A stretch of 56,468 nucleotides of DNA. It comes from a virus. Its lineage: Duplodnaviria > Caudoviricetes. The notes under the pieces were generated by a model. It was not told where the DNA came from. It saw only the letters and a program-made list of their open reading frames with translations, and did not search any database. Numbering within the stretch: the first letter of the stretch is position 1; each line of letters starts with the position of its first letter. The DNA lies in the IMG/VR virus record IMGVR_UViG_3300020282_000004, positions 1 through 56,468 of that record, one strand, 5' to 3'. Of this stretch, positions 28,429 to 43,216 are shown in pieces. The position numbers and the translations under genes are program-made.

Positions 28429-28549
28429 CTTGGTTTCTCTGACATACAGTATCCCCCACTCGACACGATGCAGTATAGTTTATAGTTTGACAAGCTGATA
28501 ATATTCCTAATACGCATAGTTGTATTGATGCGTTTCTTAATGTCAACAC
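28310..28549 (-). CDS. putative lipoprotein
   Basis: Lipobox ILSA-C after a hydrophobic stretch; four further Cys. Confidence 0.5.
   Translation of the reverse strand: MLTLRNASIQLCVLGILSACQTINYTASCRVGDTVCQRNQDAQTLAIIGHTEAATELMCSDTAITQLSSSICTGTSTDR
28518..28546 (-). promoter_or_regulatory. promoter-like TTGACA-N16-TACAACT
   Basis: Same architecture as the MCP promoter; overlaps the lipoprotein start. Confidence 0.45.
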
Positions 28550-28554
28550 TTTAT

Positions 28555-28815
28555 TTACCCTACACCTGGTCTTTTTCTGTCAGGGTCTAGCACTTCGTAA
28601 CGACTTAGAAAGCCCTCAAGGTACATAGCTCTCTCTACATGGTCTAATGTATAACTTTTTCCGAGTTTAGACTTTAGTGCTTCACGTACATAGAACACAT
28701 CTGACTTAGGAATGTGAACTCTACGTAGCTTTTTACTGTCTCCGTCTGCTATTGCCTCGTAGAACTCTTCAATAACGTCTTCAGAAGAGTACATATTTAC
28801 TTTGTTTCTGTACAT
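28555..28815 (-). CDS. conserved hypothetical protein, first gene of the leftward arm
   Basis: 86 aa, VHIPKSDVFYVREAL...LDHVERAMYLEG. Confidence 0.6.
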   Translation of the reverse strand: MYRNKVNMYSSEDVIEEFYEAIADGDSKKLRRVHIPKSDVFYVREALKSKLGKSYTLDHVERAMYLEGFLSRYEVLDPDRKRPGVG

Positions 28816-28953
28816 AGTCCTGCCTAAAAGGTGGTATGTACCATAAACTACGTGTGAGGAGGAGGATTGTGAGGAAGAAAGACACCCAGAATACGGTACA
28901 TACCTAGTATAACACTATTTATTGGTTATAATTATTGTAGTGTTACTAGATTT

Positions 28954-28982
28954 AGTATACAGGAGGTTAGTATTACTGTCAA
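28954..28982 (-). promoter_or_regulatory. consensus sigma70 promoter, leftward
   Basis: TTGACA-17 nt-TATACT with an AT-rich UP-like region at 28983-29040. Confidence 0.75.
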
Positions 28983-29072
28983 GTTAAACTTTATTTTTGT
29001 TATATTATTTATTTATTATTACTTTTTTTAAGTCTAAACACTAAATGTTTAACTATCCTGCTCCTGCTTCGC

Positions 29073-29101
29073 AGTTATACCCAGAAAATAGGCTGTGTCA
29101 A
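29073..29101 (-). promoter_or_regulatory. leftward promoter TTGACA-N16-TATAACT
   Basis: CTTGACACAG...GTATAACT, flanks identical to the 40301-40330 promoter. Confidence 0.6.
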
Positions 29102-29338
29102 GTGTTTATTTCTGTATATGCGACATTATGTCACCATTCTAAAAACCACTTCTGTGTATTTGTGTATATATACGTACTGGGTAACGGGGGGTGGCGCTCG
29201 CAGGGTGGTGCTTTTGACTGGCTATCTTGCAGTATTGGTACTGTTTTGCTTACTAAGTTACTGTTTTTACAACATAAACTAACTGATATATCCTCAATAG
29301 ACTACAAAAAGGTGTTGTAATTATGCAACTTCTCAGAA

Positions 29339-29395
29339 TGTGATCACAATTTGACAAGGGATGCACAACTAGACCCCATACTTTGTGATCACAAA
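29339..29395. repeat. two TGTGATCACA palindromes
   Basis: 29339-29348 and 29384-29393 (the second extends to the 14 bp TTTGTGATCACAAA). Confidence 0.7.
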
Positions 29396-29411
29396 ATACC
29401 ATACCCCATAA

Positions 29412-29456
29412 GAACGAATCAGGAACAAACAACTACAAGCAGAACCAAACAGGAAC
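29412..29456 (+). promoter_or_regulatory. two alphaproteobacterial LexA-type boxes GAAC-N7-GAAC
   Basis: GAACgaatcagGAAC (29412-29426) and GAACcaaacagGAAC (29442-29456). Confidence 0.6.
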
Positions 29457-29512
29457 AGCTAAAAAAAGAATCGTTTAATTACAACAACTTATAAAATAAT
29501 TCAAAAAAACAC

Positions 29513-29542
29513 TTGCTTTCTATGTTGGGGTATGCCCTTAAT
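29513..29542 (+). promoter_or_regulatory. possible rightward early promoter
   Basis: TTGCTT-18 nt-CTTAAT preceded by an A-tract UP-like element. Confidence 0.35.
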
Positions 29543-29667
29543 AGTACATCGAAAAGATAGCGGAAACCGAAAAGCACAAGGTAAGACCTAGCTAGGACTG
29601 AAGCACTTAAGTCGACATAGACGGATAATGAAAAGACCCTCTAATAAATACTAACTAAATAAAATAC

Positions 29668-29696
29668 TTGACTAACAAAACTAAATACGAAAGACT
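29668..29696 (+). promoter_or_regulatory. rightward early promoter
   Basis: TTGACT-17 nt-AAGACT with AT-rich upstream sequence. Confidence 0.5.
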
Positions 29697-30003
29697 GAAT
29701 ACAACACTAACGAAAGATAACTGATACGACACAAACGAATAGACATAATTTTGCAATAGCTCATAGGCGTGAAAGTGAGAATACACTACAAGCCCAGCCA
29801 ATAGGCAAGCAGACAATAAACGTGGACGCCACTAAGTCTGTACAAGTGTTGACTAACACATAACCACTGAAAAGGTGCTAACCTACTGTATGATTGCAAC
29901 CTGTATTTTGTGGACACACTAACTGCTAATCTAGGCCAACCTAGACTTTGCTTGACAATGGGTGGATAGTGTGTCTAGCTAAATATAGAGAGGAGTACTA
30001 CCA

Positions 30004-30264
30004 ATGATATTACTTGACGGACAAAGGTATGAGCGCAACGGATTGTTCGCTACACCTGAAACTATAGATGACTTGACTGATCAGCTTAACAGCCCTGAGC
30101 AATGGGTTGCTTATGGTCTAACAACTAACTTTTTACACAATGAGTTCAACAAAGTTCTTGACAACCTACAGAAAGATATAGAAGCTCTAGAGGAAAAGTG
30201 TGACGTTTACAGACGTGCATACAATTATGAGAGAGGATTGACGGATAATGACACAACCAGTTAG
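30004..30264 (+). CDS. early hypothetical protein
   Basis: GAGGAG RBS; first gene of the rightward arm; C-terminal coiled coil. Confidence 0.65.
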   Translation: MILLDGQRYERNGLFATPETIDDLTDQLNSPEQWVAYGLTTNFLHNEFNKVLDNLQKDIEALEEKCDVYRRAYNYERGLTDNDTTS

Positions 30265-30838
30265 GAACATACTCAAGATATACCGTATGGCTACCACTGA
30301 GGACATAGCTAATGGCGTGGAGTGGTACGATAGAGCCAAGCGGTATGCTGACACTATATCCAAGCAGACTGGAGTGCATCTGCATACAGTAATTGGAGTA
30401 ATGGCGGCACTATCACCCAACAACAAATGGGAGCGCAACGTTGCAGACTGTGAGCGTATGTGTATGTACTGGATGCATGGCTATGACTTGGACGACTTCA
30501 AAGTCTCATGCTACAACACTATGAAGCTCAAGGCTTGGAGCATACTTGCTGACAACTTGACCAGTGACGATGACATATTGACTAGACTCAATGGGCAAAA
30601 GATCAGGTCATTCTATTCCAACATACGAGGGCTGGACGAAGTGACTATAGACGGCCATGCCCTTAACATTGCACTAGGCAAGCTTCAAGGCTTGACTACT
30701 GACAAGACTAACATGGGCAAAAAAGTCTATGTAGAGATGCAGAAGCATTATGTACGTGCTGCCAAAAGAGTTGACATACCAGCCCACGTATTGCAAGCTA
30801 TTACTTGGACAACATGGAAGAGAGTACACAAGATATGA
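30248..30838 (+). CDS. DUF7178-like protein (HhH-glycosylase-like fold suspected)
   Basis: G.EWY, AALSP..KWERN, GQKIRSFYSNI, VTIDGHA, LQAITW. Confidence 0.6.
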   Translation: MTQPVRNILKIYRMATTEDIANGVEWYDRAKRYADTISKQTGVHLHTVIGVMAALSPNNKWERNVADCERMCMYWMHGYDLDDFKVSCYNTMKLKAWSILADNLTSDDDILTRLNGQKIRSFYSNIRGLDEVTIDGHALNIALGKLQGLTTDKTNMGKKVYVEMQKHYVRAAKRVDIPAHVLQAITWTTWKRVHKI

Positions 30839-30966
30839 AAACTTTAATAGATAAGGTAATTGATCAAATAGTGATAGATGTTAATAAAAAAGATTACACT
30901 GCAATAGAGGAGCTATTGAAGGTAATACCAAGAGAAAACCTAATAGGGTTTTTATCAGAAACTTAA
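30835..30966 (+). CDS. 43 aa early protein
   Basis: ATGA-coupled; MKTLIDKVIDQIVIDVNKKDYTAIEELL...; not in ORF track. Confidence 0.55.
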   Translation: MKTLIDKVIDQIVIDVNKKDYTAIEELLKVIPRENLIGFLSET

Positions 30967-30986
30967 ACAAACAAAGAGGAGATATT

Positions 30987-31211
30987 ATGTTTGTAATACT
31001 AGCAACTAAACCAACTCAGGACGGATGCAAAGGTTTCCGTTTCAACTTCCTTGGCATCAAGGGCATCTACCGCAAGCGTAGCATTATCAGGCGCTGGGGT
31101 AGGCAGGAAGGTAATTGTATGCTCAGCTACCACTTTGGCAAGCGTAGCCTTTACATTGAGAAGTCTGCTAACACTAGAACTAGACGCAAGTTCAGACACG
31201 TAGCTGGGTGA
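30987..31211 (+). CDS. basic early protein
   Basis: GAGGAG RBS, GFRFNFLGIKG. Confidence 0.6.
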   Translation: MFVILATKPTQDGCKGFRFNFLGIKGIYRKRSIIRRWGRQEGNCMLSYHFGKRSLYIEKSANTRTRRKFRHVAG

Positions 31212-31215
31212 TACT

Positions 31216-31572
31216 ATGCAGAACATGGTAGTAAAAAACAAAGGGCTTGACTTTACTGAATCTCAGTGGGGTCAACTCATAGAGGGCAATGGACTGCTTA
31301 TCATGTGGTTCATTGAGTGGAACAAAGGTGACAAGCAAGATGCTAATATCTTGGAGTTCTTTGCTCGTAAGTATCAACAGTCTGCTGGCTGTGAGCCTTT
31401 TCCATTAGGTGGGAAGGTAGCACTAGACGGTAAGTATGTATCGAGAGGTGATGATGACCTTGAGCCATACTTCCTGATCAATACTAATGAGGGCGTTGGA
31501 TACGTCTATCCATACGCAATAGTAGCACTGCCTAGAAAATCAGGCGGTCACCATATAGTGAGGATGGACTAA
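31216..31572 (+). CDS. early hypothetical protein
   Basis: 118 aa; G.Y.S.GDDDLEP...YVYPYAIVA...RMD. Confidence 0.65.
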   Translation: MQNMVVKNKGLDFTESQWGQLIEGNGLLIMWFIEWNKGDKQDANILEFFARKYQQSAGCEPFPLGGKVALDGKYVSRGDDDLEPYFLINTNEGVGYVYPYAIVALPRKSGGHHIVRMD

Positions 31573-31799
31573 TGAAGCTTAACTGTACAATTCAAATGGA
31601 CAATGATGCGTTTATGGGTATTGATGAAGGAGCGCATCCAACTCTTGAAGTAGCTAGAATACTTCACGGATTGGCCGATAATATGTGTCAGTCTTATCCA
31701 GATGACACCTCATGGGATGGATACCTAAGAGACATAAACGGTAACAAAGTTGGTTACTACAAATATGAATCGGATATAGATGTAGAGGAGTGTGACTAA
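31572..31799 (+). CDS. acidic early protein
   Basis: IQMDNDAF...EVARIL...LRDINGNKVG; TAATG coupling. Confidence 0.65.
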   Translation: MKLNCTIQMDNDAFMGIDEGAHPTLEVARILHGLADNMCQSYPDDTSWDGYLRDINGNKVGYYKYESDIDVEECD

Positions 31800-32056
31800 T
31801 GACTAAAAAATGGAGCTTAGAAAATATGCACACGGTGAAAGACTTAGCCAAGAAACTAAACATAGAGGTGGGCATGAGTACAAGCATGGCAGTCGAGGAG
31901 GCTATGACCTACCTTACAATGTCATTCCACAAACGTAACGTGGATAGTATCAAGGCGGCTGAGTTACTCAGGTGGTGGCTCAGTGACTTTCAAGACAAGG
32001 AGCTAGAATACTTTGAGATTAGAGTAGACTTAGCCAAACAAGTGAGGAACAGATAA
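31799..32056 (+). CDS. early hypothetical protein
   Basis: TAATG-coupled ORF with GAGGAG RBS. Confidence 0.6.
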   Translation: MTKKWSLENMHTVKDLAKKLNIEVGMSTSMAVEEAMTYLTMSFHKRNVDSIKAAELLRWWLSDFQDKELEYFEIRVDLAKQVRNR

Positions 32057-32319
32057 TGTATGACTTTGACAATGACCCAAAAAGAATACAAGACAAGCTG
32101 TACTGTAGCATGAGCGCACACTTCTTGACTAACGAACTACCAGTCGAGGCTATTGACTGGGATGAAGACAAGATAGAGGAATGGTGTAAGGAAAATGTTT
32201 GGCAACCATTCGAGTATTGGGAAGCTTCAGATGTTATGGACTTAATCGAGAGTGCCGCCTGGCATGCTTACAGATTTATGAAAAGCAACTGGAAGGAGTT
32301 GAACAATGGCAAAGTATAA
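32056..32319 (+). CDS. acidic early protein
   Basis: TAATG-coupled, D/E/W-rich. Confidence 0.6.
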   Translation: MYDFDNDPKRIQDKLYCSMSAHFLTNELPVEAIDWDEDKIEEWCKENVWQPFEYWEASDVMDLIESAAWHAYRFMKSNWKELNNGKV

Positions 32320-32515
32320 AGTGACAGCCACAATGGATGTGGGATACGAAGCTATTATTGAAGCTGATAGTGAAGAGGAAGCATGGGCGATAGCACGTGG
32401 TGACAGATTTGAAGAGGCTGACTGGGAAAAGACAGACAACGGACACGACTGGACTTTGGAAAACATTTGGAAGCATGAAGATGCTTGGTATGGAATTAAT
32501 AGAATAGATGAATAG
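32306..32515 (+). CDS. acidic early protein
   Basis: AAGGAG RBS; IEADSEEEAWAIA motif. Confidence 0.6.
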   Translation: MAKYKVTATMDVGYEAIIEADSEEEAWAIARGDRFEEADWEKTDNGHDWTLENIWKHEDAWYGINRIDE

Positions 32516-32531
32516 AGAAGGAGACTAAGGA

Positions 32532-32804
32532 ATGCGTAATATAAAACTAAATGTATCTCGGAGTGTTGAACAGATGTGCATAGCATCATTCAGATCTATG
32601 TTTGTTGAGCGCTTGGAAGATGGTGTCGACCTAACACCCAAGTATATAGAGATGCTAGTCAAGGAACACTGTGAGCCATACATGATAGTGACACAAGGTT
32701 TTACACATGACCTACTAGCTAATGCACTGGACTACATGGACTGGGAGTACATATCCTATCACATCAACCACCCAGTATATAAGGAGACTAAAGATGGACG
32801 GTGA
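32532..32804 (+). CDS. early hypothetical protein
   Basis: AAGGAG RBS; DLLANALDYMDWEYI. Confidence 0.6.
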   Translation: MRNIKLNVSRSVEQMCIASFRSMFVERLEDGVDLTPKYIEMLVKEHCEPYMIVTQGFTHDLLANALDYMDWEYISYHINHPVYKETKDGR

Positions 32805-33090
32805 ACTAATACTAAGTGACTATGAGAAGGGATACTTACTATCTGTGTATGACTTACAGGCAGTGTACGAGGCCAAGGAGTACATCCAAGAGTATCCAGA
32901 AGAAAACTTTTGGTTTATGCAAGTTGTAGGCGACAGGACTTTTGACATGTGTATATACCTATCAGATGAGGACGACATTACCTCAGACAAAGTGTGCGTG
33001 GTGTATGAGTGCCACCCCGATGGTACTGGCTGTATGACTACGGACACATCATTCCAATATTATTTAAAGGGTAGAAAGGAGGAAGACTGA
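32794..33090 (+). CDS. acidic early protein
   Basis: AAGGAG RBS before ATG 32794 (MDGELIL...). Confidence 0.6.
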   Translation: MDGELILSDYEKGYLLSVYDLQAVYEAKEYIQEYPEENFWFMQVVGDRTFDMCIYLSDEDDITSDKVCVVYECHPDGTGCMTTDTSFQYYLKGRKEED

Positions 33091-33269
33091 TGCTACCTGA
33101 TGAAATGGAAGCTGAGAAAAACAGGAAGCTGTTACTATCTCAGGCTGACAAGATAGAGATACTAGAGAGAAATGTGCGTGACTTGCAACAGAACTTACAA
33201 GATGCGTATGTAATAATAAAACATAAACAGCAAAGGATAGATGAACTAACATGCAACCAAGAAACATAA
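33090..33269 (+). CDS. 59 aa coiled-coil early protein
   Basis: AGGAGG RBS, TGATG coupling; LERNVRDLQQNLQDAY; not in ORF track. Confidence 0.55.
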   Translation: MLPDEMEAEKNRKLLLSQADKIEILERNVRDLQQNLQDAYVIIKHKQQRIDELTCNQET

Positions 33270-33526
33270 ACGCACATCAACGTGTGAAGTATGAGCCTAG
33301 CTATCTCAAGCGTGGCAGACAGTGTACACTATTCGGTGTGGACTTTGAGAGCGTAGCACAAGCGGCTAGGTACTGGAAGATTTCATACTCATGGGCTAAA
33401 GAACAGATAGATGGTGGACACAACAAGCACAAGCTACCCAGGCGGTACATCCACAAAGGTAAACCAAGAGGACGATGGAGGACTAAGCATGAAGTGGTTA
33501 ATATTCATAGCACTGACACAAGGTAA
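33251..33526 (+). CDS. small basic HTH (NUMOD1-like) DNA-binding protein
   Basis: GVDFESVAQAARYWKISYSWAKEQI. Confidence 0.5.
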   Translation: MQPRNINAHQRVKYEPSYLKRGRQCTLFGVDFESVAQAARYWKISYSWAKEQIDGGHNKHKLPRRYIHKGKPRGRWRTKHEVVNIHSTDTR

Positions 33527-33716
33527 CTCGTTTACGATAGACGACAGACCTTTTGAGACAGAGGATGATTGCATTGCATACATAAGTAGCATTGACAACG
33601 TAGATCATTTAGCTGTAGAAGTTATATCGAGGGCTGGCTTCAATGCCAGACTGACTGAGTTGAGATGTATAACTGAACAAGAGAGGAAGACTTATGAGAC
33701 TATACAAAAACTCTGA
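33489..33716 (+). CDS. small exported protein ([FY]xTxExC type)
   Basis: GGAGG RBS, MKWLIFIAL..., FETEDDC, second Cys near the C-terminus. Confidence 0.55.
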   Translation: MKWLIFIALTQGNSFTIDDRPFETEDDCIAYISSIDNVDHLAVEVISRAGFNARLTELRCITEQERKTYETIQKL

Positions 33717-34017
33717 GGGTGTATGGGCAGGTACACAAGCTGACGCACGTAAGATGTGTGGCAAGACTTATAGTACTGTCGATGTACCAACCGACAAGCC
33801 TAACCTATTAAAGTTCCTTAACCTCAATCAGGTTGGCTCCTATACTAGTAACGATAAGCAAGATACTATTACAGGAGAGATTGATACTTCAAACAAAAGT
33901 GCAATGTCTTGGATACGATGGAGCCACGACTGTATGTGTAGAGGACAGTATGAAGATGCAAAAGAAATGTTAAGAAAAGGATTGGAGCTAGCAAGAGATG
34001 GTAAAGAAAGCACCTGA
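33694..34017 (+). CDS. early hypothetical protein
   Basis: G.WAGTQADAR...VDVPTDKPNLLKFLN. Confidence 0.65.
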   Translation: MRLYKNSEGVWAGTQADARKMCGKTYSTVDVPTDKPNLLKFLNLNQVGSYTSNDKQDTITGEIDTSNKSAMSWIRWSHDCMCRGQYEDAKEMLRKGLELARDGKEST

Positions 34018-34183
34018 GAAGTTAAATATAGAGGTAACGTTATCTAGTGAGAACTCATGTTACTTAGGTATAAAGGACTACATTATATACGTAGAGGTGA
34101 GTCAAGCTACAGAGAATAAACCCCTCGTAAGTTTTTGGAAGAAAGGATGGAAAGATGATAGAGCTATTACTCTCAGTCATTGA
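33998..34183 (+). CDS. early hypothetical protein
   Basis: GGAG RBS, tiles between its neighbours. Confidence 0.5.
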   Translation: MVKKAPEKLNIEVTLSSENSCYLGIKDYIIYVEVSQATENKPLVSFWKKGWKDDRAITLSH

Positions 34184-34442
34184 GGAACCCAACCAGATAC
34201 ACAAGTATTGTATGTCCAAGCATGATCACTGGACAGGCAGAGCCGCATGTGTACAAGAGCTACGACATGCCCAGCGCAAGCTAGAGGTAGAGAGACTACG
34301 ACAGTTCTTGAAAGAGAACCCACACTACAAGTACCCAGGCATGGCATTGCCTAACGGAAAGATAAAACCTCTTGACGTTTGCTGGGGATCTGATAAAACT
34401 TATTACATAGGAAGTGACAAACAGAAGAGGAGTAAGTGCTGA
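34155..34442 (+). CDS. early hypothetical protein
   Basis: 95 aa; LRQFLKENPHYKYPGMA. Confidence 0.55.
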   Translation: MIELLLSVIEEPNQIHKYCMSKHDHWTGRAACVQELRHAQRKLEVERLRQFLKENPHYKYPGMALPNGKIKPLDVCWGSDKTYYIGSDKQKRSKC

Positions 34443-34594
34443 TGTCATATGAAGTATGGTTTGGACAAGACGGTAACTGGTTTGGTTACCACTCATTCAA
34501 ACACCGCATGGATGCTGTACGCTACGAGCTACGGTATCTTAAAATGTTTCCTAAATTAACTGTTGAGATACGGAGGAGAGAACATGCGAGTTAG
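34442..34594 (+). CDS. 50 aa early protein
   Basis: GAGGAG RBS, TGATG coupling; MSYEVWFGQDGNWFGYH...; not in ORF track. Confidence 0.5.
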   Translation: MSYEVWFGQDGNWFGYHSFKHRMDAVRYELRYLKMFPKLTVEIRRREHAS

Positions 34595-34772
34595 TCCCGA
34601 TGGATGGCGATACAAAGTCACACCCATAGACAGGGTGATCAACGACTGTAGGCGCAGAGCAGACGATGCTTGGTGGGATGGTAACGATGAAGAGGCCAAA
34701 CTACACGAGCAAGAACAGAAGCTATACGAGAAGGATAAAGAGGAGGGTGTACTTTGGGTTCCGAACTTTTAG
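34584..34772 (+). CDS. early hypothetical protein
   Basis: GGAGGAG RBS before ATG 34584; C-terminal EGVLWVPNF. Confidence 0.55.
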   Translation: MRVSPDGWRYKVTPIDRVINDCRRRADDAWWDGNDEEAKLHEQEQKLYEKDKEEGVLWVPNF

Positions 34773-34855
34773 CGGCAGCGTTTCCAATTATAATATCAGT
34801 GGGCTGGACAATAGGTTTTGTCCTGTTATGGATTGCACATGCAAGAGGAAAGTGA
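34754..34855 (+). CDS. 33 aa single-TM peptide
   Basis: GGAGGG RBS, TTG start; MGSELLAAAFPIIISVGWTIGFVLLWIAHARGK. Confidence 0.4.
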   Translation: MGSELLAAAFPIIISVGWTIGFVLLWIAHARGK

Positions 34856-34857
34856 CA

Positions 34858-35112
34858 ATGCACAAGATAAGAATGCGCCTTTTGATGATGTCACACATTG
34901 GGTGGGTAACCTACCTGACAAGAATAATGATAGTACTAAGCGTACTCTTAAACGTTATTCTTGGTGGCAGACTCAATCAAACATTCTCCGCAAGAAACTG
35001 GGAATGGAAACGAAACGGAAGAAATAATCTAGTGCGACTATTGGACACATTGCTAGGCGATGGTCATTGCAGTAGATCATGGGCATACTGGAAGGTAAGG
35101 AGGAAATGGTAA
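34858..35112 (+). CDS. small membrane-associated protein upstream of the integrase
   Basis: LSVLLNVILGG..NQTFSARNW...LDTLLGDGHC; start uncertain. Confidence 0.5.
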   Translation: MHKIRMRLLMMSHIGWVTYLTRIMIVLSVLLNVILGGRLNQTFSARNWEWKRNGRNNLVRLLDTLLGDGHCSRSWAYWKVRRKW

Positions 35113-36026
35113 TGAATATCCCGAAGCATAACTGTACGTTGGAAGAGGTGATAGACTTCTATCGTAACTCAGATGTTTATCGTAGGTTGTCCTCCTCCTC
35201 ACAAAAAGACTACGATAATCACTTGTCAGCTACACTCACTACTGAGGTAGAGGGCAAGATGCTTCGGGCATATCGCTGTAAGAACCTGAAGGTTCGACAC
35301 ATAACACAAGCATACGAGCAATGGCTGACAGTTGGTACACGTACTGCCAACTACAGACGCAGTGTCCTTTCTGCTGCGTGGAAACATGCCATGCGACATG
35401 ATGTGTTCATTCACAATCCAATCTCTTTGGTGCAGACCGTCACTGAGAAACCAAGGAGAGTACACTGGACACGTGAACAAGTGTCAATCTTTCTTGACAC
35501 AGCTTACAGCGACTTTCGCTGGCGTAGCATTGGCTTGATTGTGCATATGGCATACGACTGGGGTCAACGTGTAGGAGATGTTCGACTTCTTACATGGAAT
35601 AGTTTAGACTTAAACGAATGCAGAATAGATATGACACAAAGCAAACGTAATGCAGAAATACATCTCCCTATATCGCAGGGTTTGTGTACCATGCTACGTC
35701 AGCAGAAGGAGGAGTTTGGCTTTCAAGAGTACGTAGTACCAAGAGTGAAGCCTAGAGCAGGAGCATATACACCCTATGACAAAGAAGAAATCTCGTTACA
35801 TATCAATAAGATCCTGGAAGAAGCTAATCTACCTAAAGAGCTTACGGCTATGGATTTACGTAGGACAGCGGTCACAGAAATGATGGAAGGTGGTGTTGAC
35901 TTGGCAGGTATTATGCAAGTGACAGGACACCAGAATGCCGCATCAGTCAAGCCTTACATGGTCAACACATTTAGTGGTGCAAGCAAGGCACTAGCGGCAA
36001 GAGGTAAGCAAGATGAAGATGCGTGA
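35112..36026 (+). CDS. int: tyrosine recombinase / integrase
   Basis: AAGGAGG RBS; GQRVGD (R), QSKR (K), DLRRT, TGH, KPY catalytic pattern. Confidence 0.85.
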   Translation: MNIPKHNCTLEEVIDFYRNSDVYRRLSSSSQKDYDNHLSATLTTEVEGKMLRAYRCKNLKVRHITQAYEQWLTVGTRTANYRRSVLSAAWKHAMRHDVFIHNPISLVQTVTEKPRRVHWTREQVSIFLDTAYSDFRWRSIGLIVHMAYDWGQRVGDVRLLTWNSLDLNECRIDMTQSKRNAEIHLPISQGLCTMLRQQKEEFGFQEYVVPRVKPRAGAYTPYDKEEISLHINKILEEANLPKELTAMDLRRTAVTEMMEGGVDLAGIMQVTGHQNAASVKPYMVNTFSGASKALAARGKQDEDA

Positions 36027-36828
36027 GTTGATTGACAATCTTAATCTCAAGGATGGCGAGAGACACAGAGGTGACTGCCCTGAGTGCCGAGGTAGAAATA
36101 CATTCACCGTTGCCAATATATTTGGTGAGATAAAGTACAACTGTTTTAAGTTGGGTTGTAGAGTTGGTGGCATCTACGACACTGGCATGACAGCAGCAGA
36201 GATATTCCTACGCATGAGTGAGCAACAGTTTCAACGTGCGTATACAAACATAACGAAAGCGAAGGAGAGTATGGAGATACCTGAATACGTGGTGACACCA
36301 AAAGCATCACACACCAAGTACCAACGCTATGTAAGGCGATGGGGCATAGCAATAGGCGACACCATGTATGACGTAAAAGATGAACGTGTTGTCTTTCCTA
36401 TCAAGTATGATGGTAGGATAATTGATGCAGTGGGTAGAGCAGTTGGTAAGAAGCAACACCCCAAGTGGTATCGCTACACAGGCGAGGCCGATTACTACAC
36501 CATAGGTATTGGCAAGACACTGGTGATAGTAGAGGATGTAGTGTCTGCTATAGTTGCGGCACAAGAGATACCATACATCACAGCTATGGCTATCCTGGGT
36601 ACTAGCATGAACCCTAAACACTTTGAGAAGATAGGAGAGTATGACAAGACTATCATAGCTCTTGACCCTGACGCTGTAGGCAAGACAGTTGAGTATCGCA
36701 GAGAGATAGAACTGTGGACAGGACGCAAGACAACAGCAATGAATCTTATAGACGACATAAAGTATCGTGAGTTTGAAGATATGGAAAAACTAAAGGAGTT
36801 GGTAAATGAAATTAGCAGTAGTGATTGA
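36013..36828 (+). CDS. DNA primase (Zn finger + TOPRIM)
   Basis: CPEC...CFKLGC; VIVEDVVSA, ILGT, ALDPDA. Confidence 0.85.
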   Translation: MKMRELIDNLNLKDGERHRGDCPECRGRNTFTVANIFGEIKYNCFKLGCRVGGIYDTGMTAAEIFLRMSEQQFQRAYTNITKAKESMEIPEYVVTPKASHTKYQRYVRRWGIAIGDTMYDVKDERVVFPIKYDGRIIDAVGRAVGKKQHPKWYRYTGEADYYTIGIGKTLVIVEDVVSAIVAAQEIPYITAMAILGTSMNPKHFEKIGEYDKTIIALDPDAVGKTVEYRREIELWTGRKTTAMNLIDDIKYREFEDMEKLKELVNEISSSD

Positions 36829-37087
36829 CGTGGACGGTGACATCATGTATGTACCAGAGGGTAAAGTGTTTCCAAACTTTCCAGCACCAAAGGTATTTGA
36901 CAATATTGCAGACGCAGAAGAGGAACGTGACAAGTGGAACACTGGTATAATTGTTGACCTTGACAATAACAACAAGACTGTGCCTACAATTAGACCGTTC
37001 AATGATGAGGAAAGACAGAGAGCGAAAGAGCGAGAGGAGATGAACAGAGATGATGGAACTAGCACTGGTCAAAACTCTACTCAATAG
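36806..37087 (+). CDS. small conserved protein between primase and helicase
   Basis: AAGGAG RBS; DVDGDIMYV...KWNTG. Confidence 0.6.
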   Translation: MKLAVVIDVDGDIMYVPEGKVFPNFPAPKVFDNIADAEEERDKWNTGIIVDLDNNNKTVPTIRPFNDEERQRAKEREEMNRDDGTSTGQNSTQ

Positions 37088-38273
37088 AGAGTTTTATGAC
37101 AAACACAAGGGTGTGCATTGCCCTGAACGTATATTCAGTAAGGATGTGCGTAAGATAAAGCAAGCGTTGGATACGGCTATGGAGACATACGATGGTGACC
37201 TGTCTGTGTCTGACTTACAGGCTGTGTTCAATCGCATGAATGCAAGTATGACTACATCCACAAAGACAGCATATGAAGATTTGTTTAAGCGTATCAACAT
37301 AGCTGAACCTATCAAAAGTGAGATAGCAAAGGATACATTGTCTCAGTTGTTTCAGCAACACGTAGGTGACCTTGTAGCTAACCTTGGTTTTAATTTTGTG
37401 AACGGTACAGAAAATACCCTTGAACCATTGCGTAAAATATTAGAGGAATATAAAGATGACTTTACTCCAAATACACGTATCGAGTGGGATGATCACAGTT
37501 TTGATACTGTGCTTGCTTTATCTCAGCAAGAAGCCAGATGGAAAATTAACATCCCTCCCCTGGCTGATAGGGTGGAAGGAATCAGTGGCGGTCATTTCGT
37601 TGTGGTTGGTGCTAGACCTAATTCTGGTAAGACTTCTTTTCATTCCTCACTTGTAGCAGCAGAGGGTGGCTTCGCACATCAGGGTGCTAAATGTATATTG
37701 CTTACAAACGAAGAAGCATATAATCGTGTAGTGTTACGTTATATAGGTGCATCATCAAAGATGTGTATCAAAGAAGAGCTACCAAGAAATATACCACTGG
37801 CTCAAGCTAGATATAAACCTGTGGCTGATAAAATAAAGATTAAAGATTCAACTGGCAAAAACATGGACTGGGTTGAGTCTGTAGTAAAGCAAGAAAGACC
37901 TGACATTGTTATACTGGACATGGGAGATAAGTTTGCTACACCGACCACTGATCGCCCAGATATAACTCTTAGAATTGCTGCGATACACGCACGTAACATA
38001 GCAAAAGAATATAACTGTGCTGTGTTTTGGATGTCACAATTATCTGCTGAAGCACAAGACAGGGTTGCCCCTAACATGTCAATGCTAGAGGGTAGTAAAA
38101 CAGGTAAAGCTGCTGAAGCTGACCTAATGATACTAATTGGTATGGCTGCTGAAACAGAGGGTGAAGAGCAAAATAGTATGCGGTATATTAACGTAGCAAA
38201 AAATAAACTTACTGGATGGCATGGTAAAATACCAGCTATGCTTGATGTGAAGCGTGGTATATATAAAAGATGA
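37050..38273 (+). CDS. replicative SF4 (DnaB/T7 gp4-like) helicase
   Basis: Walker A GARPNSGKT, ILDMGDK, SQLS, GSKTGKAAEADL, KNK. Confidence 0.88.
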   Translation: MMELALVKTLLNREFYDKHKGVHCPERIFSKDVRKIKQALDTAMETYDGDLSVSDLQAVFNRMNASMTTSTKTAYEDLFKRINIAEPIKSEIAKDTLSQLFQQHVGDLVANLGFNFVNGTENTLEPLRKILEEYKDDFTPNTRIEWDDHSFDTVLALSQQEARWKINIPPLADRVEGISGGHFVVVGARPNSGKTSFHSSLVAAEGGFAHQGAKCILLTNEEAYNRVVLRYIGASSKMCIKEELPRNIPLAQARYKPVADKIKIKDSTGKNMDWVESVVKQERPDIVILDMGDKFATPTTDRPDITLRIAAIHARNIAKEYNCAVFWMSQLSAEAQDRVAPNMSMLEGSKTGKAAEADLMILIGMAAETEGEEQNSMRYINVAKNKLTGWHGKIPAMLDVKRGIYKR

Positions 38274-40321
38274 GATTAGTATTAGATGTAGAGAACACCG
38301 TCACCAAGCGTGACGATAAGGTTCACCTAGATCCTTTCGAGCCTAGTAATCACTTGGTGCAGGTAGGTATGCTGGATGCCGATGACCCTAAAGCTACCTT
38401 CACTATTAAGACACTAGATCACAACGAACTCACAGACTTCACAGGCTTTCAGTCACTTGACATACAGTGGACGCTGGACAATACCAAGCTACTCATTATG
38501 CACAACGCACAGCATGACTTGATGTGGCTGTGGGAGTGTGGCTACAAGTATGACGGTGACATCTATGACACCATGCTCGCTGAGTATATACTAGATCGTG
38601 GACAGAGAAATGGGCTAAGCTTAGAGGCTTGTGCAGAACGTAGACAACTAGGGGTACAGAAGGATGACACACTCAAGAAATATTTTAAGGAAGGTAAGAA
38701 CACAAATGAAATACCCTTGCAGGAACTTTGTCATTATCTCAAGCATGACTTGTTTACTACTTGCGAGTTGTTCCATGCCCAAGAGAGAGACTTTTCACTT
38801 CCCGAAGCATCTTCCCTTAGTACAATCAAGAGAGTTACCTTTAATACCTGTAAGACCCTCACCGAAATTTATAGGACAGGATTCAAAGTCGATCTTCAAG
38901 AGTTGGGGCGAGTAGCAAAGGAGTTTGAGAATGAGAAAGCGGAGATTGAAACAAGGCTGCAAAAGAAAGTCAGGGAACTTATGGGCGACACTCCGATCAA
39001 CCTACGCTCACCTGAACAGAAGTCGCAAGTCCTCTTCAGCAGAAGGGTACATGACAAAAAAGAATGGTCTGATCTCTTCGAGTTCACATCGACACAAGAA
39101 GAGTTTAAGGATGCCGTTAAAGCAAACTCGTCACCGATCTACAGGACTACGGCATACACCTGTCCTACTTGCGAGGGGCAGGGTAAAGTATACCGACTTA
39201 AAAAAGATGGAACAAAGTTTGCTAGACCTAATAAATGCAAAGATTGTAATGCGAAAGGATACAAACTAAAAGAGGGCAAGCAAGTAGCAGGGCTACGCTT
39301 TACTGCACCCAGTAAGAAGTGGGTCAGTGCCAATGGATTTAACACAGGAAAGGATGAACTAGATGTACTATCTGCAACTGCTAAGAACAATAGAATGGAC
39401 GAGGCTCTTAGTTTCATTTCTGATCTTAAACGCCATAATGCTGTTAGCTCTTACCTATCTTCTTTTGTCAACGGAATACGTGCCTATACAAAACCCAATG
39501 GATTCCTGCACGTTGGACTCACCCAACATATTACAGCTACTGGACGTTTCAGTGGACGCAACCCCAACATGCAGAACATGCCTCGTGGAGGTACATTCCC
39601 TGTAAAGAAAGTATTTATATCAAGATTTGACAACGGATTAATTATGGAGGCCGACTTTGCACAACTCGAATTTAGGACAGCAGCGTTCTTGGCACAGGAT
39701 GAAACAGCGATGGGAGAAATCTCAACTGGTTTCGATGTACATGCTTACACAGCAAAAGTTATTACTGATGCAGGACAACCAACGTCACGTCAAGCAGCTA
39801 AAGAACACACGTTCGCTCCGCTTTTTGGAGCAACAGGTTACGGAAGATCAAAAGCAGAAGCAACCTACTACGAACACTTCAACAATAAGTACAAAGGCAT
39901 AGCCAGGTGGCACAAGAAGTTAGCTGAAGAGGCACTACAATTCCTAAAGATAACAAACGTATCAGGCAGACAGTACGCCTTTCCTGATGTGACAAGACGT
40001 AGCAGTGGCACACCAACGCACTTTACTATGATAAAGAATTACCCAGTGCAGGGCTTTGCTACAGGTGATGTAGTACCAGTGATACTTAATGAAATGCATG
40101 AACGCTTGCGGCATATGCAGTCGTGTTTGGTTAATACTGTACACGATTCTATGGTGGTTGATGTGCATCCCGATGAGAAAGACCTAGTGCTATCACTGGT
40201 GTGGACACTTAACCAAGACTTAAACAAAATTATAGAGGAGACATACGGAATTGAAATGAACGTGCCTATGCTTTTAGAAGCAAAAATAGGAAAAAACTGG
40301 CTTGACACAGTTGATATATAG
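38270..40321 (+). CDS. polA: family A DNA polymerase with 3'-5' exonuclease and DnaJ-like Zn-finger insert
   Basis: ExoI LDVE, HNAQHDL, motif A DFAQLEFR, motif B RQAAKEHTF, NYPVQG, motif C VHDS; CPTCEGQG/CKDCNAKG. Confidence 0.93.
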   Translation: MRLVLDVENTVTKRDDKVHLDPFEPSNHLVQVGMLDADDPKATFTIKTLDHNELTDFTGFQSLDIQWTLDNTKLLIMHNAQHDLMWLWECGYKYDGDIYDTMLAEYILDRGQRNGLSLEACAERRQLGVQKDDTLKKYFKEGKNTNEIPLQELCHYLKHDLFTTCELFHAQERDFSLPEASSLSTIKRVTFNTCKTLTEIYRTGFKVDLQELGRVAKEFENEKAEIETRLQKKVRELMGDTPINLRSPEQKSQVLFSRRVHDKKEWSDLFEFTSTQEEFKDAVKANSSPIYRTTAYTCPTCEGQGKVYRLKKDGTKFARPNKCKDCNAKGYKLKEGKQVAGLRFTAPSKKWVSANGFNTGKDELDVLSATAKNNRMDEALSFISDLKRHNAVSSYLSSFVNGIRAYTKPNGFLHVGLTQHITATGRFSGRNPNMQNMPRGGTFPVKKVFISRFDNGLIMEADFAQLEFRTAAFLAQDETAMGEISTGFDVHAYTAKVITDAGQPTSRQAAKEHTFAPLFGATGYGRSKAEATYYEHFNNKYKGIARWHKKLAEEALQFLKITNVSGRQYAFPDVTRRSSGTPTHFTMIKNYPVQGFATGDVVPVILNEMHERLRHMQSCLVNTVHDSMVVDVHPDEKDLVLSLVWTLNQDLNKIIEETYGIEMNVPMLLEAKIGKNWLDTVDI

Positions 40322-40330
40322 TGTATAACT
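40302..40330 (+). promoter_or_regulatory. promoter TTGACA-N16-TATAACT at the end of polA
   Basis: About 30 nt upstream of the 40363 ATG; matches three other sites. Confidence 0.6.
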
Positions 40331-40362
40331 AAAGCTCTTTAACTCTATGAAAAGGATATAGA

Positions 40363-41238
40363 ATGAGTAATGAACTAGCAATAGCAACAGAGCGTGGTAA
40401 ATCAATGGCAGAACTAATGGGAGTGTCGTCTGCACCCTCACAGGATCTCATGCCAACGATAGCACGTTTATCACTACAGCAAATGCAGCCTATTATGGGT
40501 GAAGTAGAACTCAATGGTAAGAAGATAAAGACCGAGGTAGTACCTATTGGCTCGTTCAAGCTGGATACTGGAGATAAAACAGTATACAGTGAGACTGCCA
40601 CGGTACGTGTCTTTGCCCAGCGCAAACAACTACAACGCTGGAATAGTGAGACAGAAGAGATGGAAAAGTCTGTGATGGCTAACGACACCAATGGCGACTT
40701 GAAAGATAGCATTGGTGGTTTCAACTTAGGCAGACCAGCAGGTTACATCCAAGACTTTGAGTCTTTACCTGAAGAAACCAAACAGCTTATACGTTCAGTG
40801 AAGCTTGTTAGTGTTATATATGGCACAGTTACAATGAAGAACCCTATAAACAACGAGGGTACAACTGTGGCTGACATAGAAGACGTGCCATTTGTTATGG
40901 ACATCAAGAACAACGATAGTAAGAAAAGTATTAATGGTGTGATGAATCACCTTAAAAAGAAAAAATTACTACCTATTATGTCCACAATAGAACTTGAAGG
41001 TATTACTGGTACGGTAGCCAGTGGTGCTAAGTTTGGTAAGATAAGTGCTAAATTAGGTACGCCTTGTGAGATAAGTGGCACGGACAATGACACACTCAAA
41101 GACTTTATTGAACTAATTGAGTATAACAATGGCAGGATTCTTGACCTACACCATGAACGTGCTAAAGTTGGTACAGATGGTGACACAGAGCTTGTTGAGG
41201 CTATTCTCAATAATGACTTTGTTGAGGTTGACGAGTAA
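40363..41238 (+). CDS. putative ssDNA-binding/annealing protein
   Basis: 291 aa after polA, acidic/aromatic C-tail NDFVEVDE, own promoter. Confidence 0.5.
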   Translation: MSNELAIATERGKSMAELMGVSSAPSQDLMPTIARLSLQQMQPIMGEVELNGKKIKTEVVPIGSFKLDTGDKTVYSETATVRVFAQRKQLQRWNSETEEMEKSVMANDTNGDLKDSIGGFNLGRPAGYIQDFESLPEETKQLIRSVKLVSVIYGTVTMKNPINNEGTTVADIEDVPFVMDIKNNDSKKSINGVMNHLKKKKLLPIMSTIELEGITGTVASGAKFGKISAKLGTPCEISGTDNDTLKDFIELIEYNNGRILDLHHERAKVGTDGDTELVEAILNNDFVEVDE

Positions 41239-41984
41239 TGGGCAAAGAGTCTAACCACTGGTATGACAAAACAGGTAAAGCTGCATACACAACTCTGGAC
41301 TCTAAAGGTAAGGAGCGCAGCACCAATCTAAGGGATGCTAGAAAACACGGATATGTACCGTCTGTTACTACTATCCTTGGTGTTGCGGCCAAGCCCTCAC
41401 TTGAGAATTGGAAAGTTAACCAAGCCATAAATGCTGCACTTGCATTAGAAAAAAGAAAAGGTGAAACAGACACACAGTTTCTATACAGATGTAAAGAGTA
41501 CTCAAGAAGTGTGGGTAAAGAAGCAGCAGAAAAGGGTACGATTATCCATGCTATGATAGAGCAAGGCTTTGAGGGTGGAGAAGAAACAAAACCCTATATC
41601 AAAATAAAAGAGTACTTGGATAAAAAGTTTCCCAATGAGAAGTGGACTTCAGAGGCTTCGTTCTGTGCTGAAGATGGTTATGGTGGCAAGATAGACTTAC
41701 ATTCTGAGTCGGGTATCTTTGTTGACTTTAAAACAAAAGACAACTTGAGTGGTAAAGAAGGAGCCAGGCTTGTGTTTGATGAGCATGGTATGCAGTTGTC
41801 AGCCTATGCCAATGGCTGTGGATTCAATGACCCTGAAAGAGTTTCTATCTTTGTTGACAGAGAAGATCCAGAGTTAATAGTTCCATACAAATGGGACAAA
41901 GAAACACACCCTAAACACTTACAGATGTTTAAAAGTTTACTGACATACTGGAAGCTGTTTAAAAACTATGACCCTTCTAAGTGA
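41238..41984 (+). CDS. PD-(D/E)XK exonuclease
   Basis: PSVTTIL, GTIIH, E...YGGKIDL...VDFKT, QLSAY. Confidence 0.8.
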   Translation: MGKESNHWYDKTGKAAYTTLDSKGKERSTNLRDARKHGYVPSVTTILGVAAKPSLENWKVNQAINAALALEKRKGETDTQFLYRCKEYSRSVGKEAAEKGTIIHAMIEQGFEGGEETKPYIKIKEYLDKKFPNEKWTSEASFCAEDGYGGKIDLHSESGIFVDFKTKDNLSGKEGARLVFDEHGMQLSAYANGCGFNDPERVSIFVDREDPELIVPYKWDKETHPKHLQMFKSLLTYWKLFKNYDPSK

Positions 41985-42412
41985 CTACTAGAAGACATAA
42001 CAAAAAGTTATATCGTAGCGGCCTTGAACAGGAGGCTGCTGCGTTTTTAAAGCTGAGACAAAAGAAGGTAGAGTATGAGAAGATAAAGATAGAGTGGGAG
42101 GACTTACGCTATCGCACATACACACCAGACTTTGAATTGGACAACGGAATAATAATAGAAACAAAAGGAATATTTAGTGCAGCCGATAGGCGTAAGCACA
42201 TAGAGATACAAAGACAGCACCCAAAGTTAGACATTAGATTTGTCTTTAGTAATGCAAAGGCTAGATTATACAAAGGAGCTAAGTCTAGGTACTGTGACTG
42301 GTGTGAGCAGAAACAATTTAAGTGGGCGCATCGTGTCATACCTGAAGGGTGGTTGTTAGAGAAAGGCAAGCGGATGAAACATCAGCGTGTCCTAGTTAAA
42401 AGGAGATCGTAA
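41981..42412 (+). CDS. endonuclease I (T7 gp3-like Holliday junction resolvase)
   Basis: YRSGLE, YTPDF.L.NGIIIETKG.F...DR.KH, DIRFVF. Confidence 0.88.
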   Translation: MTTRRHNKKLYRSGLEQEAAAFLKLRQKKVEYEKIKIEWEDLRYRTYTPDFELDNGIIIETKGIFSAADRRKHIEIQRQHPKLDIRFVFSNAKARLYKGAKSRYCDWCEQKQFKWAHRVIPEGWLLEKGKRMKHQRVLVKRRS

Positions 42413-42768
42413 TGTCTTACGAATTAAAAGATGGTGACGTTGCCATAGTCATAAGCCCTCAGATAAATGAGGATGGTGACTGGGAGGGTATACTCAGAAC
42501 AGGTATGGTCTTTGGTGAATCTAAAAACCAAACAGCTATGCGTTCTGCAATGGACTATGCTCTTACTATGGCAGCAGCATCAGAAGTACTAGAAGATTAT
42601 CCTGAGTTGATTGAATACTTTGATGATGCAAGACATAAGATACTAAAAGAAATGTTCCCCGATCAGTATGCACAATCAGAGCTTGAACTCAAGAAGGATA
42701 GAGAGTATACAACTGAGGGTAATGTAATTAAATTAACTAAATGGACAAAAACACTGGGTGAAGCATGA
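42412..42768 (+). CDS. conserved hypothetical protein
   Basis: AAGGAG RBS; C-terminal GNVIKL...TKTLGEA. Confidence 0.6.
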   Translation: MSYELKDGDVAIVISPQINEDGDWEGILRTGMVFGESKNQTAMRSAMDYALTMAAASEVLEDYPELIEYFDDARHKILKEMFPDQYAQSELELKKDREYTTEGNVIKLTKWTKTLGEA

Positions 42769-43052
42769 GCAAAGACTTAGAAGAAGAATTTAGCATAGAC
42801 GATATGTTGAATGAATTTGATGATGAAAAGATAGAAGAGGTGGTAAACAGCCCCTATCACTATCGCCAATCAAGTGTCGAGTGTATTGACGCTATACTAT
42901 CTGCAACGCATGAGATGCGTGAGGGATACCTACAGGGTAACATTATAAAGTATCTATGGAGATACAGGTATAAGAATGGTATGGAGGATCTCAAGAAAGC
43001 ACAATGGTACTTGAACAAACTAATAGAGGTGTACAAAGAGACTCACAAATGA
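42765..43052 (+). CDS. DUF3310 / T7 gp1.7-like (putative nucleotide kinase domain)
   Basis: VNSPYHY...ECIDAI...GNIIKYLWRYRYKNGMEDLKKAQWYL. Confidence 0.85.
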   Translation: MSKDLEEEFSIDDMLNEFDDEKIEEVVNSPYHYRQSSVECIDAILSATHEMREGYLQGNIIKYLWRYRYKNGMEDLKKAQWYLNKLIEVYKETHK

Positions 43053-43216
43053 TACGCAGATTTAGTGTGACGTATGTCATGGAGGTAGATGAGGACAACA
43101 ACTTCTTGTCTGCTCACGAAGAAGGACATACAGAAGACGTACATGATTTAGTAAGCAATGTCATGCATGATGTGGATGATGTTAAGATACAAAACTTGAT
43201 TGTCAAGGAGAGATAA
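43049..43216 (+). CDS. small acidic hypothetical protein
   Basis: ATGA overlap at 43049; MIRRFSVTYVMEVDEDNNFL. Confidence 0.55.
   Translation: MIRRFSVTYVMEVDEDNNFLSAHEEGHTEDVHDLVSNVMHDVDDVKIQNLIVKER

Follow-up and report, generated by a model that had tools for sequence, protein, structure and literature searches.

How does a roseophage that carries an integrase, and in which no repressor can be recognised, sense the state of its host cell? The question is raised by IMG/VR record IMGVR_UViG_3300020282_000004, a complete viral genome of 56,468 base pairs (bp) and about 41% GC from an HMO-2011-type podophage with an integrase; this whole stretch of DNA is referred to here as the window. The element in question is a pair of GAAC-N7-GAAC direct repeats (two GAAC half-sites separated by seven bases) in the region between the two arms of the genome. 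These boxes are real and non-random, they are conserved in the nearest clade with changes in the spacer, and their core is identical to the SOS box of the likely hosts, the operator of the repressor LexA. The reading favoured here, with a probability of roughly one half, is that the boxes are LexA sites that would give early transcription an SOS-sensitive input. All evidence was obtained in silico. The boxes and their setting are as follows.

29412 to 29426, plus strand: box 1, GAACGAATCAGGAAC, a GAAC-N7-GAAC direct repeat and candidate LexA operator
29442 to 29456, plus strand: box 2, GAACCAAACAGGAAC, the second GAAC-N7-GAAC direct repeat, starting 30 bp after the start of box 1
28816 to 30003, no strand assigned: the divergent control region, 1,188 bp of non-coding DNA and the largest such stretch, splitting the minus-strand structural and late arm from the plus-strand early and replication arm
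4580 to 4594, plus strand: a third GAAC-N7-GAAC match, within an 840-amino-acid gene (2241 to 4763)

Could the pair have arisen by chance? Counted over the whole window, the pattern occurs three times against 1.11 expected, and because 11 of 100 whole-window shuffles also reach three, the raw count is not significant. The match at 4580 to 4594 is taken as a chance occurrence. To assess the local arrangement, the 1,188-bp intergenic region was shuffled 20,000 times with its dinucleotides preserved. Each shuffle contained on average 0.033 boxes, with a probability of 0.0008 for at least two boxes and of 0.00035 for two within 45 bp; shuffling the A-rich core (29300 to 29800) alone gave about the same result. 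The region holds exactly four GAAC and zero GTTC, and all four GAAC are half-sites of the boxes. The boxes sit mid-way in the region, at the turning point of the cumulative GC skew, where the AT skew turns too.

Do the boxes match the operator of a plausible host? The literature gives GTTC-N7-GTTC as the SOS box of Caulobacter; the complementary strand of one such site, GTTCttgttatGTTC, is identical to a box in the related phage locus L065. The SOS boxes of Caulobacter, Rhodobacter and other Rhodobacteraceae have the same tetranucleotide direct repeat and 7-nucleotide (nt) spacer as the phage boxes, both of which in the window are perfect repeats with exactly seven intervening bases. Two metagenome-assembled genomes (MAGs) in which relatives of the phage polymerase occur gave access to Rhodobacteraceae genomes, and lexA and recA loci were taken from 31 genomes; two N-terminally truncated lexA matches (L138 and L139) were left out and one locus from a Marivivens MAG (L106) was added. 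All 28 lexA loci examined have a perfect GAAC-N7-GAAC upstream, as do 27 of the 30 recA loci. Host boxes are always GAAC-oriented relative to the gene, and the phage boxes have the same orientation relative to the early arm. In 16 of the 28 lexA regions another box overlaps the first at an offset of 11 bp (GAAC-N7-GAAC-N7-GAAC, the second perfect or with one mismatch), and a second, inverted box with at most one mismatch lay 22 to 41 bp upstream in 21 of the 30 recA regions. More than one box is therefore usual in these hosts, whose lexA and recA promoters, like the phage, carry two or three. Both window boxes are followed by an A directly after the second half-site. Rhodobacteraceae LexA is likely to bind the boxes in vitro.

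Is the pattern peculiar to the window? Related control regions were collected with the following early gene as anchor.

30248 to 30838, plus strand: DUF7178 early protein (Pfam PF23802, E 1.5e-42)

With this anchor 80 IMG/VR loci were fetched, and their 1.5-kb upstream regions together with that of the window gave 81 regions (95.7 kb). GAAC-N7-GAAC was matched 27 times in the 81 regions, compared with 0 to 8 matches at any other spacing from N0 to N20. The downstream DNA, 309 kb that is for the most part coding, contained five matches, and two were found in the opposite (GTTC) orientation. When duplicates were collapsed, 15 distinct N7 boxes remained in 11 regions, against at most five distinct sequences at other spacings. 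At least two boxes were present in nine of the 11 box-bearing regions, and 12 of the 15 distinct phage boxes start with GAACA, as do 59 of 75 distinct host sites. Two loci, L083 and L078, hold three GAACAAAnnnn units at an 11-bp phase, twice, beside a very AT-rich tract; these arrays resemble host lexA promoters yet also look iteron-like.

Within the nearest clade the boxes are kept while the spacer may change. Locus L172, a 56.3-kb contig with an integrase and a polymerase 91% identical to that of the window, was found independently via the polymerase. It keeps both boxes and their 30-bp spacing, and five of the seven spacer bases of box 1 are changed. Both boxes are also kept in L006, and the position of box 2 reads GAACCAAACAAGAAC in L006 and L172. 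Both boxes are present in L016 and box 1 in L024. In L004, L013 to L015, L018 and L021 a single half-site is degraded and reads AAAC or GAAA. A pattern scan of IMG/VR for two AGAAC-N7-GAAC boxes 14 to 16 bp apart returned 72 stretches, of which 13 are homologous to the window control region and add further spacer variants. The scan cannot gauge half-site conservation because perfect boxes were required; its remaining stretches include simple tandem or coding repeats, and in L331 the boxes lie within open reading frames (ORFs). In 12 of the 13 homologous contigs the distance from the start of box 1 to a downstream CTTATAAA is fixed at +77. Much of what a sequence-only reading of this DNA had put forward was confirmed. 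The two perfect plus-strand boxes, 30 bp apart, lie where it had placed them, and the control region around them is the largest non-coding stretch, between divergent arms. Its view that an adjacent pair is unlikely to be random agrees with the local shuffles, only 0.035% of which contain two boxes within 45 bp. Its identification of the motif as a LexA operator is borne out, for the family of the likely host, by the lexA and recA promoters and by the literature. That reading would have been refuted by a conserved spacer in place of conserved GAAC; in L172 of the nearest clade it is GAAC and the 30-bp spacing that are conserved, and not most of the box 1 spacer.

Which promoters could LexA act on? 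The following elements were read from the control region.

28954 to 28982, minus strand: candidate leftward promoter, TTGACA, 17-nt spacer, TATACT, matching 11 of 12 consensus positions
29459 to 29511, plus strand: conserved A-rich block, with GAATC at 29468 to 29472 and CTTATAAA at 29488 to 29495, +77 from the start of box 1
29513 to 29542, plus strand: P1, a candidate for the rightward early promoter (TTGCTT and CTTAAT, 18 nt apart), read from sequence
29650 to 29677 and 29831 to 29858, no strand assigned: TTGACTAAC repeats, conserved blocks
29930 to 29945, no strand assigned: hairpin and T run

Downstream of the boxes the order is A-rich block, P1, two TTGACTAAC blocks, the hairpin with its T run and, immediately ahead of the first gene, a TTGACA. 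P1 is nearly invariant in the window, L006, L172 and L007, and it appears as TTGC-N17-CTTAAT in more distant loci. The A-rich block may serve P1 as an UP-like element. A TATA-rich element ends 5 to 15 bp before box 1 in L006, L172, L016 and L024, and the window lacks it. The leftward promoter is the best consensus match in the region; it is conserved in four of four aligned regions and lies 430 bp from the boxes. No GAAC was found near it, and no GAAC box was found at the three conserved TTGAC-containing blocks downstream of the boxes. As the leftward promoter and the TTGAC blocks have no GAAC box, LexA at 29412 to 29456 would be unable to silence both arms.

The boxes do not stand alone. Two copies of a short palindrome precede them.

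29339 to 29348, palindromic: TGTGATCACA copy 1, a putative operator for a host regulator of the GntR/FCD family
29384 to 29393, palindromic: TGTGATCACA copy 2, lying 18 bp ahead of box 1 and part of a perfect 14-bp palindrome, TTTGTGATCACAAA

Copy 2 is conserved in L006 and L172 and changed in L007. Clusters of two or three GTGATCAC sites were found in 27 related loci plus the window; clusters of two to four copies of the site or its AAA-extended form are widespread in roseophage early control regions, occurring in, among others, L006, L013, L016, L024, L027, L036, L056, L065, L081, L172 and L191. In the control regions of cultured phages the palindrome is present four times in CRP-603, twice in CRP-345 and in CRP-1, and once in CRP-2; none was found in those of CRP-3, CRP-207 and HMO-2011. 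What could read it? The 12-mer TTGTGATCACAA occurs in 12 of the 31 Rhodobacteraceae genomes and the reversed control pattern in none of the 31. Several of the host sites are intergenic tandem pairs, and in two genomes a site lies directly upstream of a gene for a GntR/FCD-family regulator. Among 25 Rhodobacteraceae orthologues of this regulator, TGTGATCACA with at most one mismatch (10 perfect) lies 17 to 66 nt upstream in 12. Operators of the GntR/FadR type are short palindromes with a GT...AC core, and here, too, the palindrome stands upstream of the regulator's own gene. This host distribution and the position upstream of the GntR/FCD gene mean that the palindromes are best read as a host GntR/FCD autoregulatory operator. 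NCBIfam gave the regulator a generic family name only, below the cut-off, and a literature search on the palindrome yielded, among the titles listed, no relevant report. In genome G011, which has 15 copies of the palindrome, the site also occurs before an sdhC/D-like operon. Phages have probably borrowed these palindromes, as operators, from a metabolic regulator of the host. The palindromes also support a Rhodobacteraceae host. A control region that collects host-repressor sites also makes the LexA reading of the GAAC boxes more natural.

Are the boxes part of a lysogeny module? The integrase and the candidates for a phage regulator are these.

35079 to 36026, plus strand: tyrosine integrase (PHROG 1, E 1.2e-39; Pfam PF00589, E 2.9e-20)
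28555 to 28815, minus strand: first leftward gene, 86 amino acids, conserved, with a small helical predicted fold (mean predicted local distance difference test score 70.6, from a 9-sequence alignment)
33251 to 33526, plus strand: small basic early protein with a weak NUMOD1/helix-turn-helix (HTH)-like signal (Pfam HTH_17, E 0.026, below the cut-off)

The sequence-only reading had noted an integrase and no recognisable CI repressor, and this stands: none was recognised among 74 ORFs searched against PHROGs or 37 ORFs searched against Pfam (E <= 0.1). The model of the first leftward protein had no match in the PDB at E <= 0.001, and the protein is not recognisably a repressor. Only the protein at 33251 to 33526 hints at a DNA-binding regulator of the phage's own; in a protein atlas its features match NUMOD1/I-TevI DNA-binding clusters at 0.90 to 0.91, which is a lead only. 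No gene family specific to box-bearing phages was found within the loci. Homologues of the 33251 to 33526 protein are present in four of 10 box-bearing and four of 72 box-lacking loci, a comparison confounded by relatedness and locus truncation.

The same reading went on to propose that host LexA may act as the lysogeny switch of the phage, to be checked by correlating the boxes with integrase presence in HMO-2011-type genomes. This part found no support in the comparison with relatives. Integrase and boxes occur together in the window, L006, L172 and L065, and the integrase-bearing L031 has no boxes. An integrase is present in all seven cultured HMO-2011-type phages (CRP-1, CRP-2, CRP-3, CRP-207, CRP-603, CRP-345 and HMO-2011), as confirmed by search for five of them, from annotation for HMO-2011 and from the available part of the literature for CRP-1. 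The box pair is absent from the control regions of all seven, even with one mismatch allowed; single boxes occur in CRP-1 (perfect) and CRP-207 (one mismatch). CRP-3 is reported, in the part of the source at hand, to integrate at a tRNA-Met gene; no box was found in the 278 bp of its control region that were examined, and its record holds only one box elsewhere. Among cobaviruses, SIO1, P12053L, ICBM1 and ICBM2 have no pair in the left-end or upstream part examined, and CRP-4 and CRP-5 have no pair of perfect boxes in the whole record, CRP-5 having one box 1.6 kb before the record end. Conversely, G045, a cobavirus-like genome (41.5 kb, 98% complete) whose closest relatives in culture, CRP-5 and Lentibacter phage ICBM2, are cobaviruses, has two perfect boxes, three palindromes and no PF00589 or PF00239 recombinase. 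L013 (100% complete, likewise no recombinase) has one-mismatch boxes. The boxes do not travel with the lysogeny module among relatives, and this mismatch between box and integrase makes them part of a mobile early-control cassette instead. What remains of the LexA proposal is its support from motif identity, non-randomness and conservation in the nearest clade, without the lysogeny switch.

How would such a cassette work? Its layout would be GntR-type palindromes, GAAC boxes, A-rich block and P1, in common between HMO-2011-type and cobavirus-like roseophages. In an undamaged cell, LexA dimers would occupy both direct repeats, 30 bp apart and on roughly the same face of the helix, and would dampen rightward early transcription that starts at or passes the boxes. 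DNA damage would lift this brake through RecA-stimulated self-cleavage of LexA. The boxes would thus give an SOS-sensitive input at infection, and possibly also at induction in integrase-bearing members. LexA would be one modulatory input beside a second host repressor of the GntR/FCD type, which presumably reports a metabolic signal, and would not alone decide on lysogeny. That LexA binds, which way it acts and which promoter it targets are inferred. A broader suggestion, to be made only tentatively, is that two roseophage groups share a portable cassette of LexA and GntR/FCD operators, through which phages without a recognisable repressor would read both the damage and the metabolism of the host. 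This dual-operator reading could extend to the choice between lysis and lysogeny in integrase-bearing members.

Several observations weigh against a role for LexA at the boxes. Scored with a matrix built from the 75 distinct host sites, box 1 reaches 13.7 and box 2 reaches 11.2, compared with a host minimum of 9.8, a lower quartile of 16.5 and a median of 20.5. Spacer plus flanks score -2.4 and -4.8, no better than random positions of the region (mean -2.7), a weak test because the host matrix is GC-rich and the phage about 41% GC. Position 5 is G in box 1 and C in box 2, where the hosts have A in 59 of 75 sites and C in only three. No recognisable promoter overlaps the boxes, over which no convincing -35/-10 pair was found, and the -35 element of P1 starts 57 bp after box 2, an unusual place for a LexA operator. 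Host SOS boxes differ from the window boxes in all these respects, and they belong to repair genes, not to a phage. A perfect box is present in only 11 of the 81 related upstream regions, the pair is found in the control region of none of the 13 cultured relatives examined, and the box segment is missing from L007 and L031, whose identity across the region is about 70%. Box 1 is identical in L006, L016 and L024 with its spacer included. Finally, the two copies form a 17-mer repeat, AGAACnAAnCAGGAACA, with 15 of 17 positions identical and with the flanks and five of seven spacer bases in common; a duplicated 17-mer read by another factor would also fit this similarity.

That other factor could be an early protein of the phage, a winged-helix host factor of the response-regulator type reading 11-bp-phased repeats, or a replication initiator binding origin iterons. 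The partly conserved spacer of the 17-mer, the iteron-like arrays of L083 and L078 beside their AT-rich tract, the position of the boxes at the skew turn and a placement atypical for a LexA operator all speak for a binder other than LexA, as does, with the confounding already mentioned, the distribution of the HTH-like protein at 33251 to 33526. Such a binder is nevertheless doubtful. Half-site, spacing and the A at position 5 of most distinct phage boxes equal those of the host SOS box, and triple overlapping arrays are found in host lexA promoters as well. No replication-initiator gene was recognised in the family scan, the window has only two 17-mers where an iteron-type origin would have at least three phased iterons beside an AT-rich element, and no box-specific gene family accompanies the boxes. 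The Rhodobacter CtrA site, GTAAC-N6-TTAAC in the available part of its description, differs in both half-sites. Alternatively, the repeat may be a neutral duplication in an A-rich spacer, without function and kept by close relatedness. The segment is indeed dispensable: L191 lacks it as do L007 and L031, all three retaining the rest of the cassette, and the decay of half-sites in six loci and the missing TATA-rich element before box 1 of the window point the same way. Against this improbable explanation stand the N7-specific enrichment, the many distinct sequences in divergent phages, the half-sites of L172 kept through spacer turnover, the further spacer variants of the homologous contigs and their fixed +77 offset.

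The remaining two alternatives accept LexA and give it a different task. In one, a phage without a repressor of its own would use host LexA at the boxes as a master switch for both maintenance and induction of lysogeny, in the manner of GIL01. An integrase without a recognised CI-like repressor, the placement of boxes matching host SOS boxes in the main control region, and the joint presence of integrase and boxes in L006, L172 and L065 speak for such a switch. It is made unlikely by the cultured integrase-bearing phages, none of the seven having the pair and CRP-3 being, in the source as available, the one reported to integrate; by the integrase-bearing L031 without boxes and the recombinase-free G045 with perfect ones; and by a leftward promoter and three TTGAC blocks that carry no GAAC box. 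Many early ORFs also have no assigned function, and one of them, at 33251 to 33526, is HTH-like, which leaves room for a phage regulator. In the other, replicating phage DNA would act as a decoy that titrates LexA and switches on the host SOS regulon to the benefit of the phage. The boxes of the apparently lytic G045 and a position that does not suggest promoter occlusion agree with a decoy, which is very improbable with two sites per genome only and low matrix scores. The reading of the boxes as LexA sites that modulate early transcription thus remains the preferred one.

Further features of the control region were noted. A second leftward promoter, TTGACA-16-TATAAC (29096 to 29101 and 29074 to 29079, minus strand), was seen by eye as a possibility and is conserved in the four aligned regions. 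A TTGACA at 29351 to 29356 and a TTGTGA-N18-CATAAG ending at box 1 were considered as promoters and dropped, as neither is conserved in L006 or L172. Two GANTC sites, in the form GAATC, lie at 29416 to 29420 in the spacer of box 1 and at 29468 to 29472 in the A-rich block (GATTC in L006); GANTC is the recognition sequence of the alphaproteobacterial methylase CcrM. The leader between P1 and the first gene (29545 to 29950) has strongly conserved blocks, for example at 29750 to 29797, and is covered by contigs from RNA libraries; tandem early promoters or a non-coding RNA may lie within it. The boxes themselves are crossed by contigs of two RNA libraries from the same sample (29173 to 29770 and 29280 to 30020), a point for the preferred reading, with DNA carry-over possible. 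Neither RNA run covers 28941 to 29172, which a DNA run does cover, and the RNA contigs begin only at 29173 and 29179. Transcription starting rightward near 29175 was considered on this basis and no conclusion was drawn, with one sample, contigs that show neither strand nor ends, and a bubble that breaks DNA contigs there too. This bubble, at 29179 to 29309, splits the assembly contigs; two alleles with six differing positions (29209 to 29279) coexist in one DNA run and one RNA run. No other non-coding element of the region is conserved as widely as a block running from AAAAACCACTTCTGTGTA to GTATATATAC (29139 to 29177), which is about 87 to 92% identical over 30 to 39 nt in distant loci, CRP-603, CRP-2 and CRP-207. 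A scan of 28500 to 30300 against Rfam gave two matches, both far under the gathering scores and unusable.

The remainder of the genome is arranged in two arms.

30004 to 47065, plus strand: small early genes, DUF7178 protein, tyrosine integrase, primase, DnaB-type helicase, PolA and ribonucleotide reductase (RNR)
28815 down to 1, then 56468 down to 47271, minus strand: terminase, portal, capsid, tail and internal virion proteins

The nearest cultured relatives are the HMO-2011-type roseophages CRP-207, CRP-2 and CRP-603, with a DNA polymerase about 70% identical. The DUF7178 protein is about 71% identical to homologues of SIO1 and of Lentibacter and Celeribacter phages and only about 41% identical to that of CRP-207, although CRP-207 is the closer relative. 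This pattern suggests exchange of early modules between phage groups. In some records DUF7178 homologues are annotated as DNA glycosylase. A T5orf172/MUG113-domain protein, homing-endonuclease-like, is encoded at 46493 to 47065, at the end of the plus-strand arm. A tRNA scan of the window for a clue to the phage attachment site (attP) found none, and attP was not identified. A search of genome contigs with the DNA polymerase found no integrated copy among 14 loci, mostly short or phage-like MAG contigs; L096, a 72-kb alphaproteobacterial MAG contig, was considered as a prophage and dropped, its genome having no match to the terminase or integrase of the window. Many IMG/VR contigs (L004, L005, L008, L010 to L012, L019, L048 and others) stop inside the equivalent control region; the start of L004, for example, corresponds to 29418 of the window. 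The region upstream of the early genes in Lentibacter phages ICBM1 and ICBM2 (L362 and L365) opens with an annotated direct terminal repeat. From these contig ends and terminal repeats it follows that physical genome ends may lie in or near the control region.

Why would a modulatory input of this kind matter? In the surface ocean, HMO-2011-type phages and cobaviruses both count as abundant, and at issue is their decision between lysis, lysogeny and delayed development. If LexA and the GntR-type regulator do bind, the outcome of infection in abundant roseobacters would be tied to ultraviolet and other DNA damage and to host metabolism. Such a link is testable with short DNA fragments and host proteins, ahead of phage culture.

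How does the proposed arrangement compare with known systems? The window follows the plan of the HMO-2011-type phages, with a divergent control region, an integrase upstream of primase, helicase and PolA, an RNR and a convergent structural arm. Four cultured members carry TGTGATCACA palindromes and none carries the GAAC pair in its control region. Papers on these phages mention the integrase and, in the parts available, neither LexA nor a repressor; a literature search found no report linking LexA or SOS boxes to HMO-2011-type phages or cobaviruses. The tectivirus GIL01 of Bacillus thuringiensis, as described in the accessible part of its literature, is temperate, has no classical CI and carries several SOS boxes in its early control region; the window likewise has an integrase, no recognised CI and a box pair in such a region. 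The GIL01 boxes lie in its promoter P1 and its protein gp7 strengthens LexA binding, whereas here the boxes overlap no recognisable promoter and no co-factor can be identified. Unlike in a switch of the GIL01 type, the boxes here do not track lysogeny genes among relatives. Borrowing of host LexA is GIL01 logic, but the two defining features that were examined, control of lytic promoters and linkage to lysogeny, are not seen in the roseophages.

Another parallel lies in the host family itself. The recA promoter of Rhodobacter sphaeroides reportedly has two SOS boxes through which LexA exerts a dual stimulating and repressing effect, in work attributed to Tapias et al. (2002). Its two LexA boxes are about 30 bp apart, and an upstream box of this kind need not simply occlude a promoter. 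The recA boxes are mutually inverted and one is imperfect (GTTC...GATC), whereas the phage boxes are direct and both perfect. In CTXphi and other phages, LexA is an extra SOS-sensing input to an early promoter, beside the phage's own repressor, which in CTXphi is RstR. Such an additional input is the role favoured for the boxes at 29412 to 29456, with the difference that no phage repressor is recognised here and that the second input is apparently a regulator of the host.

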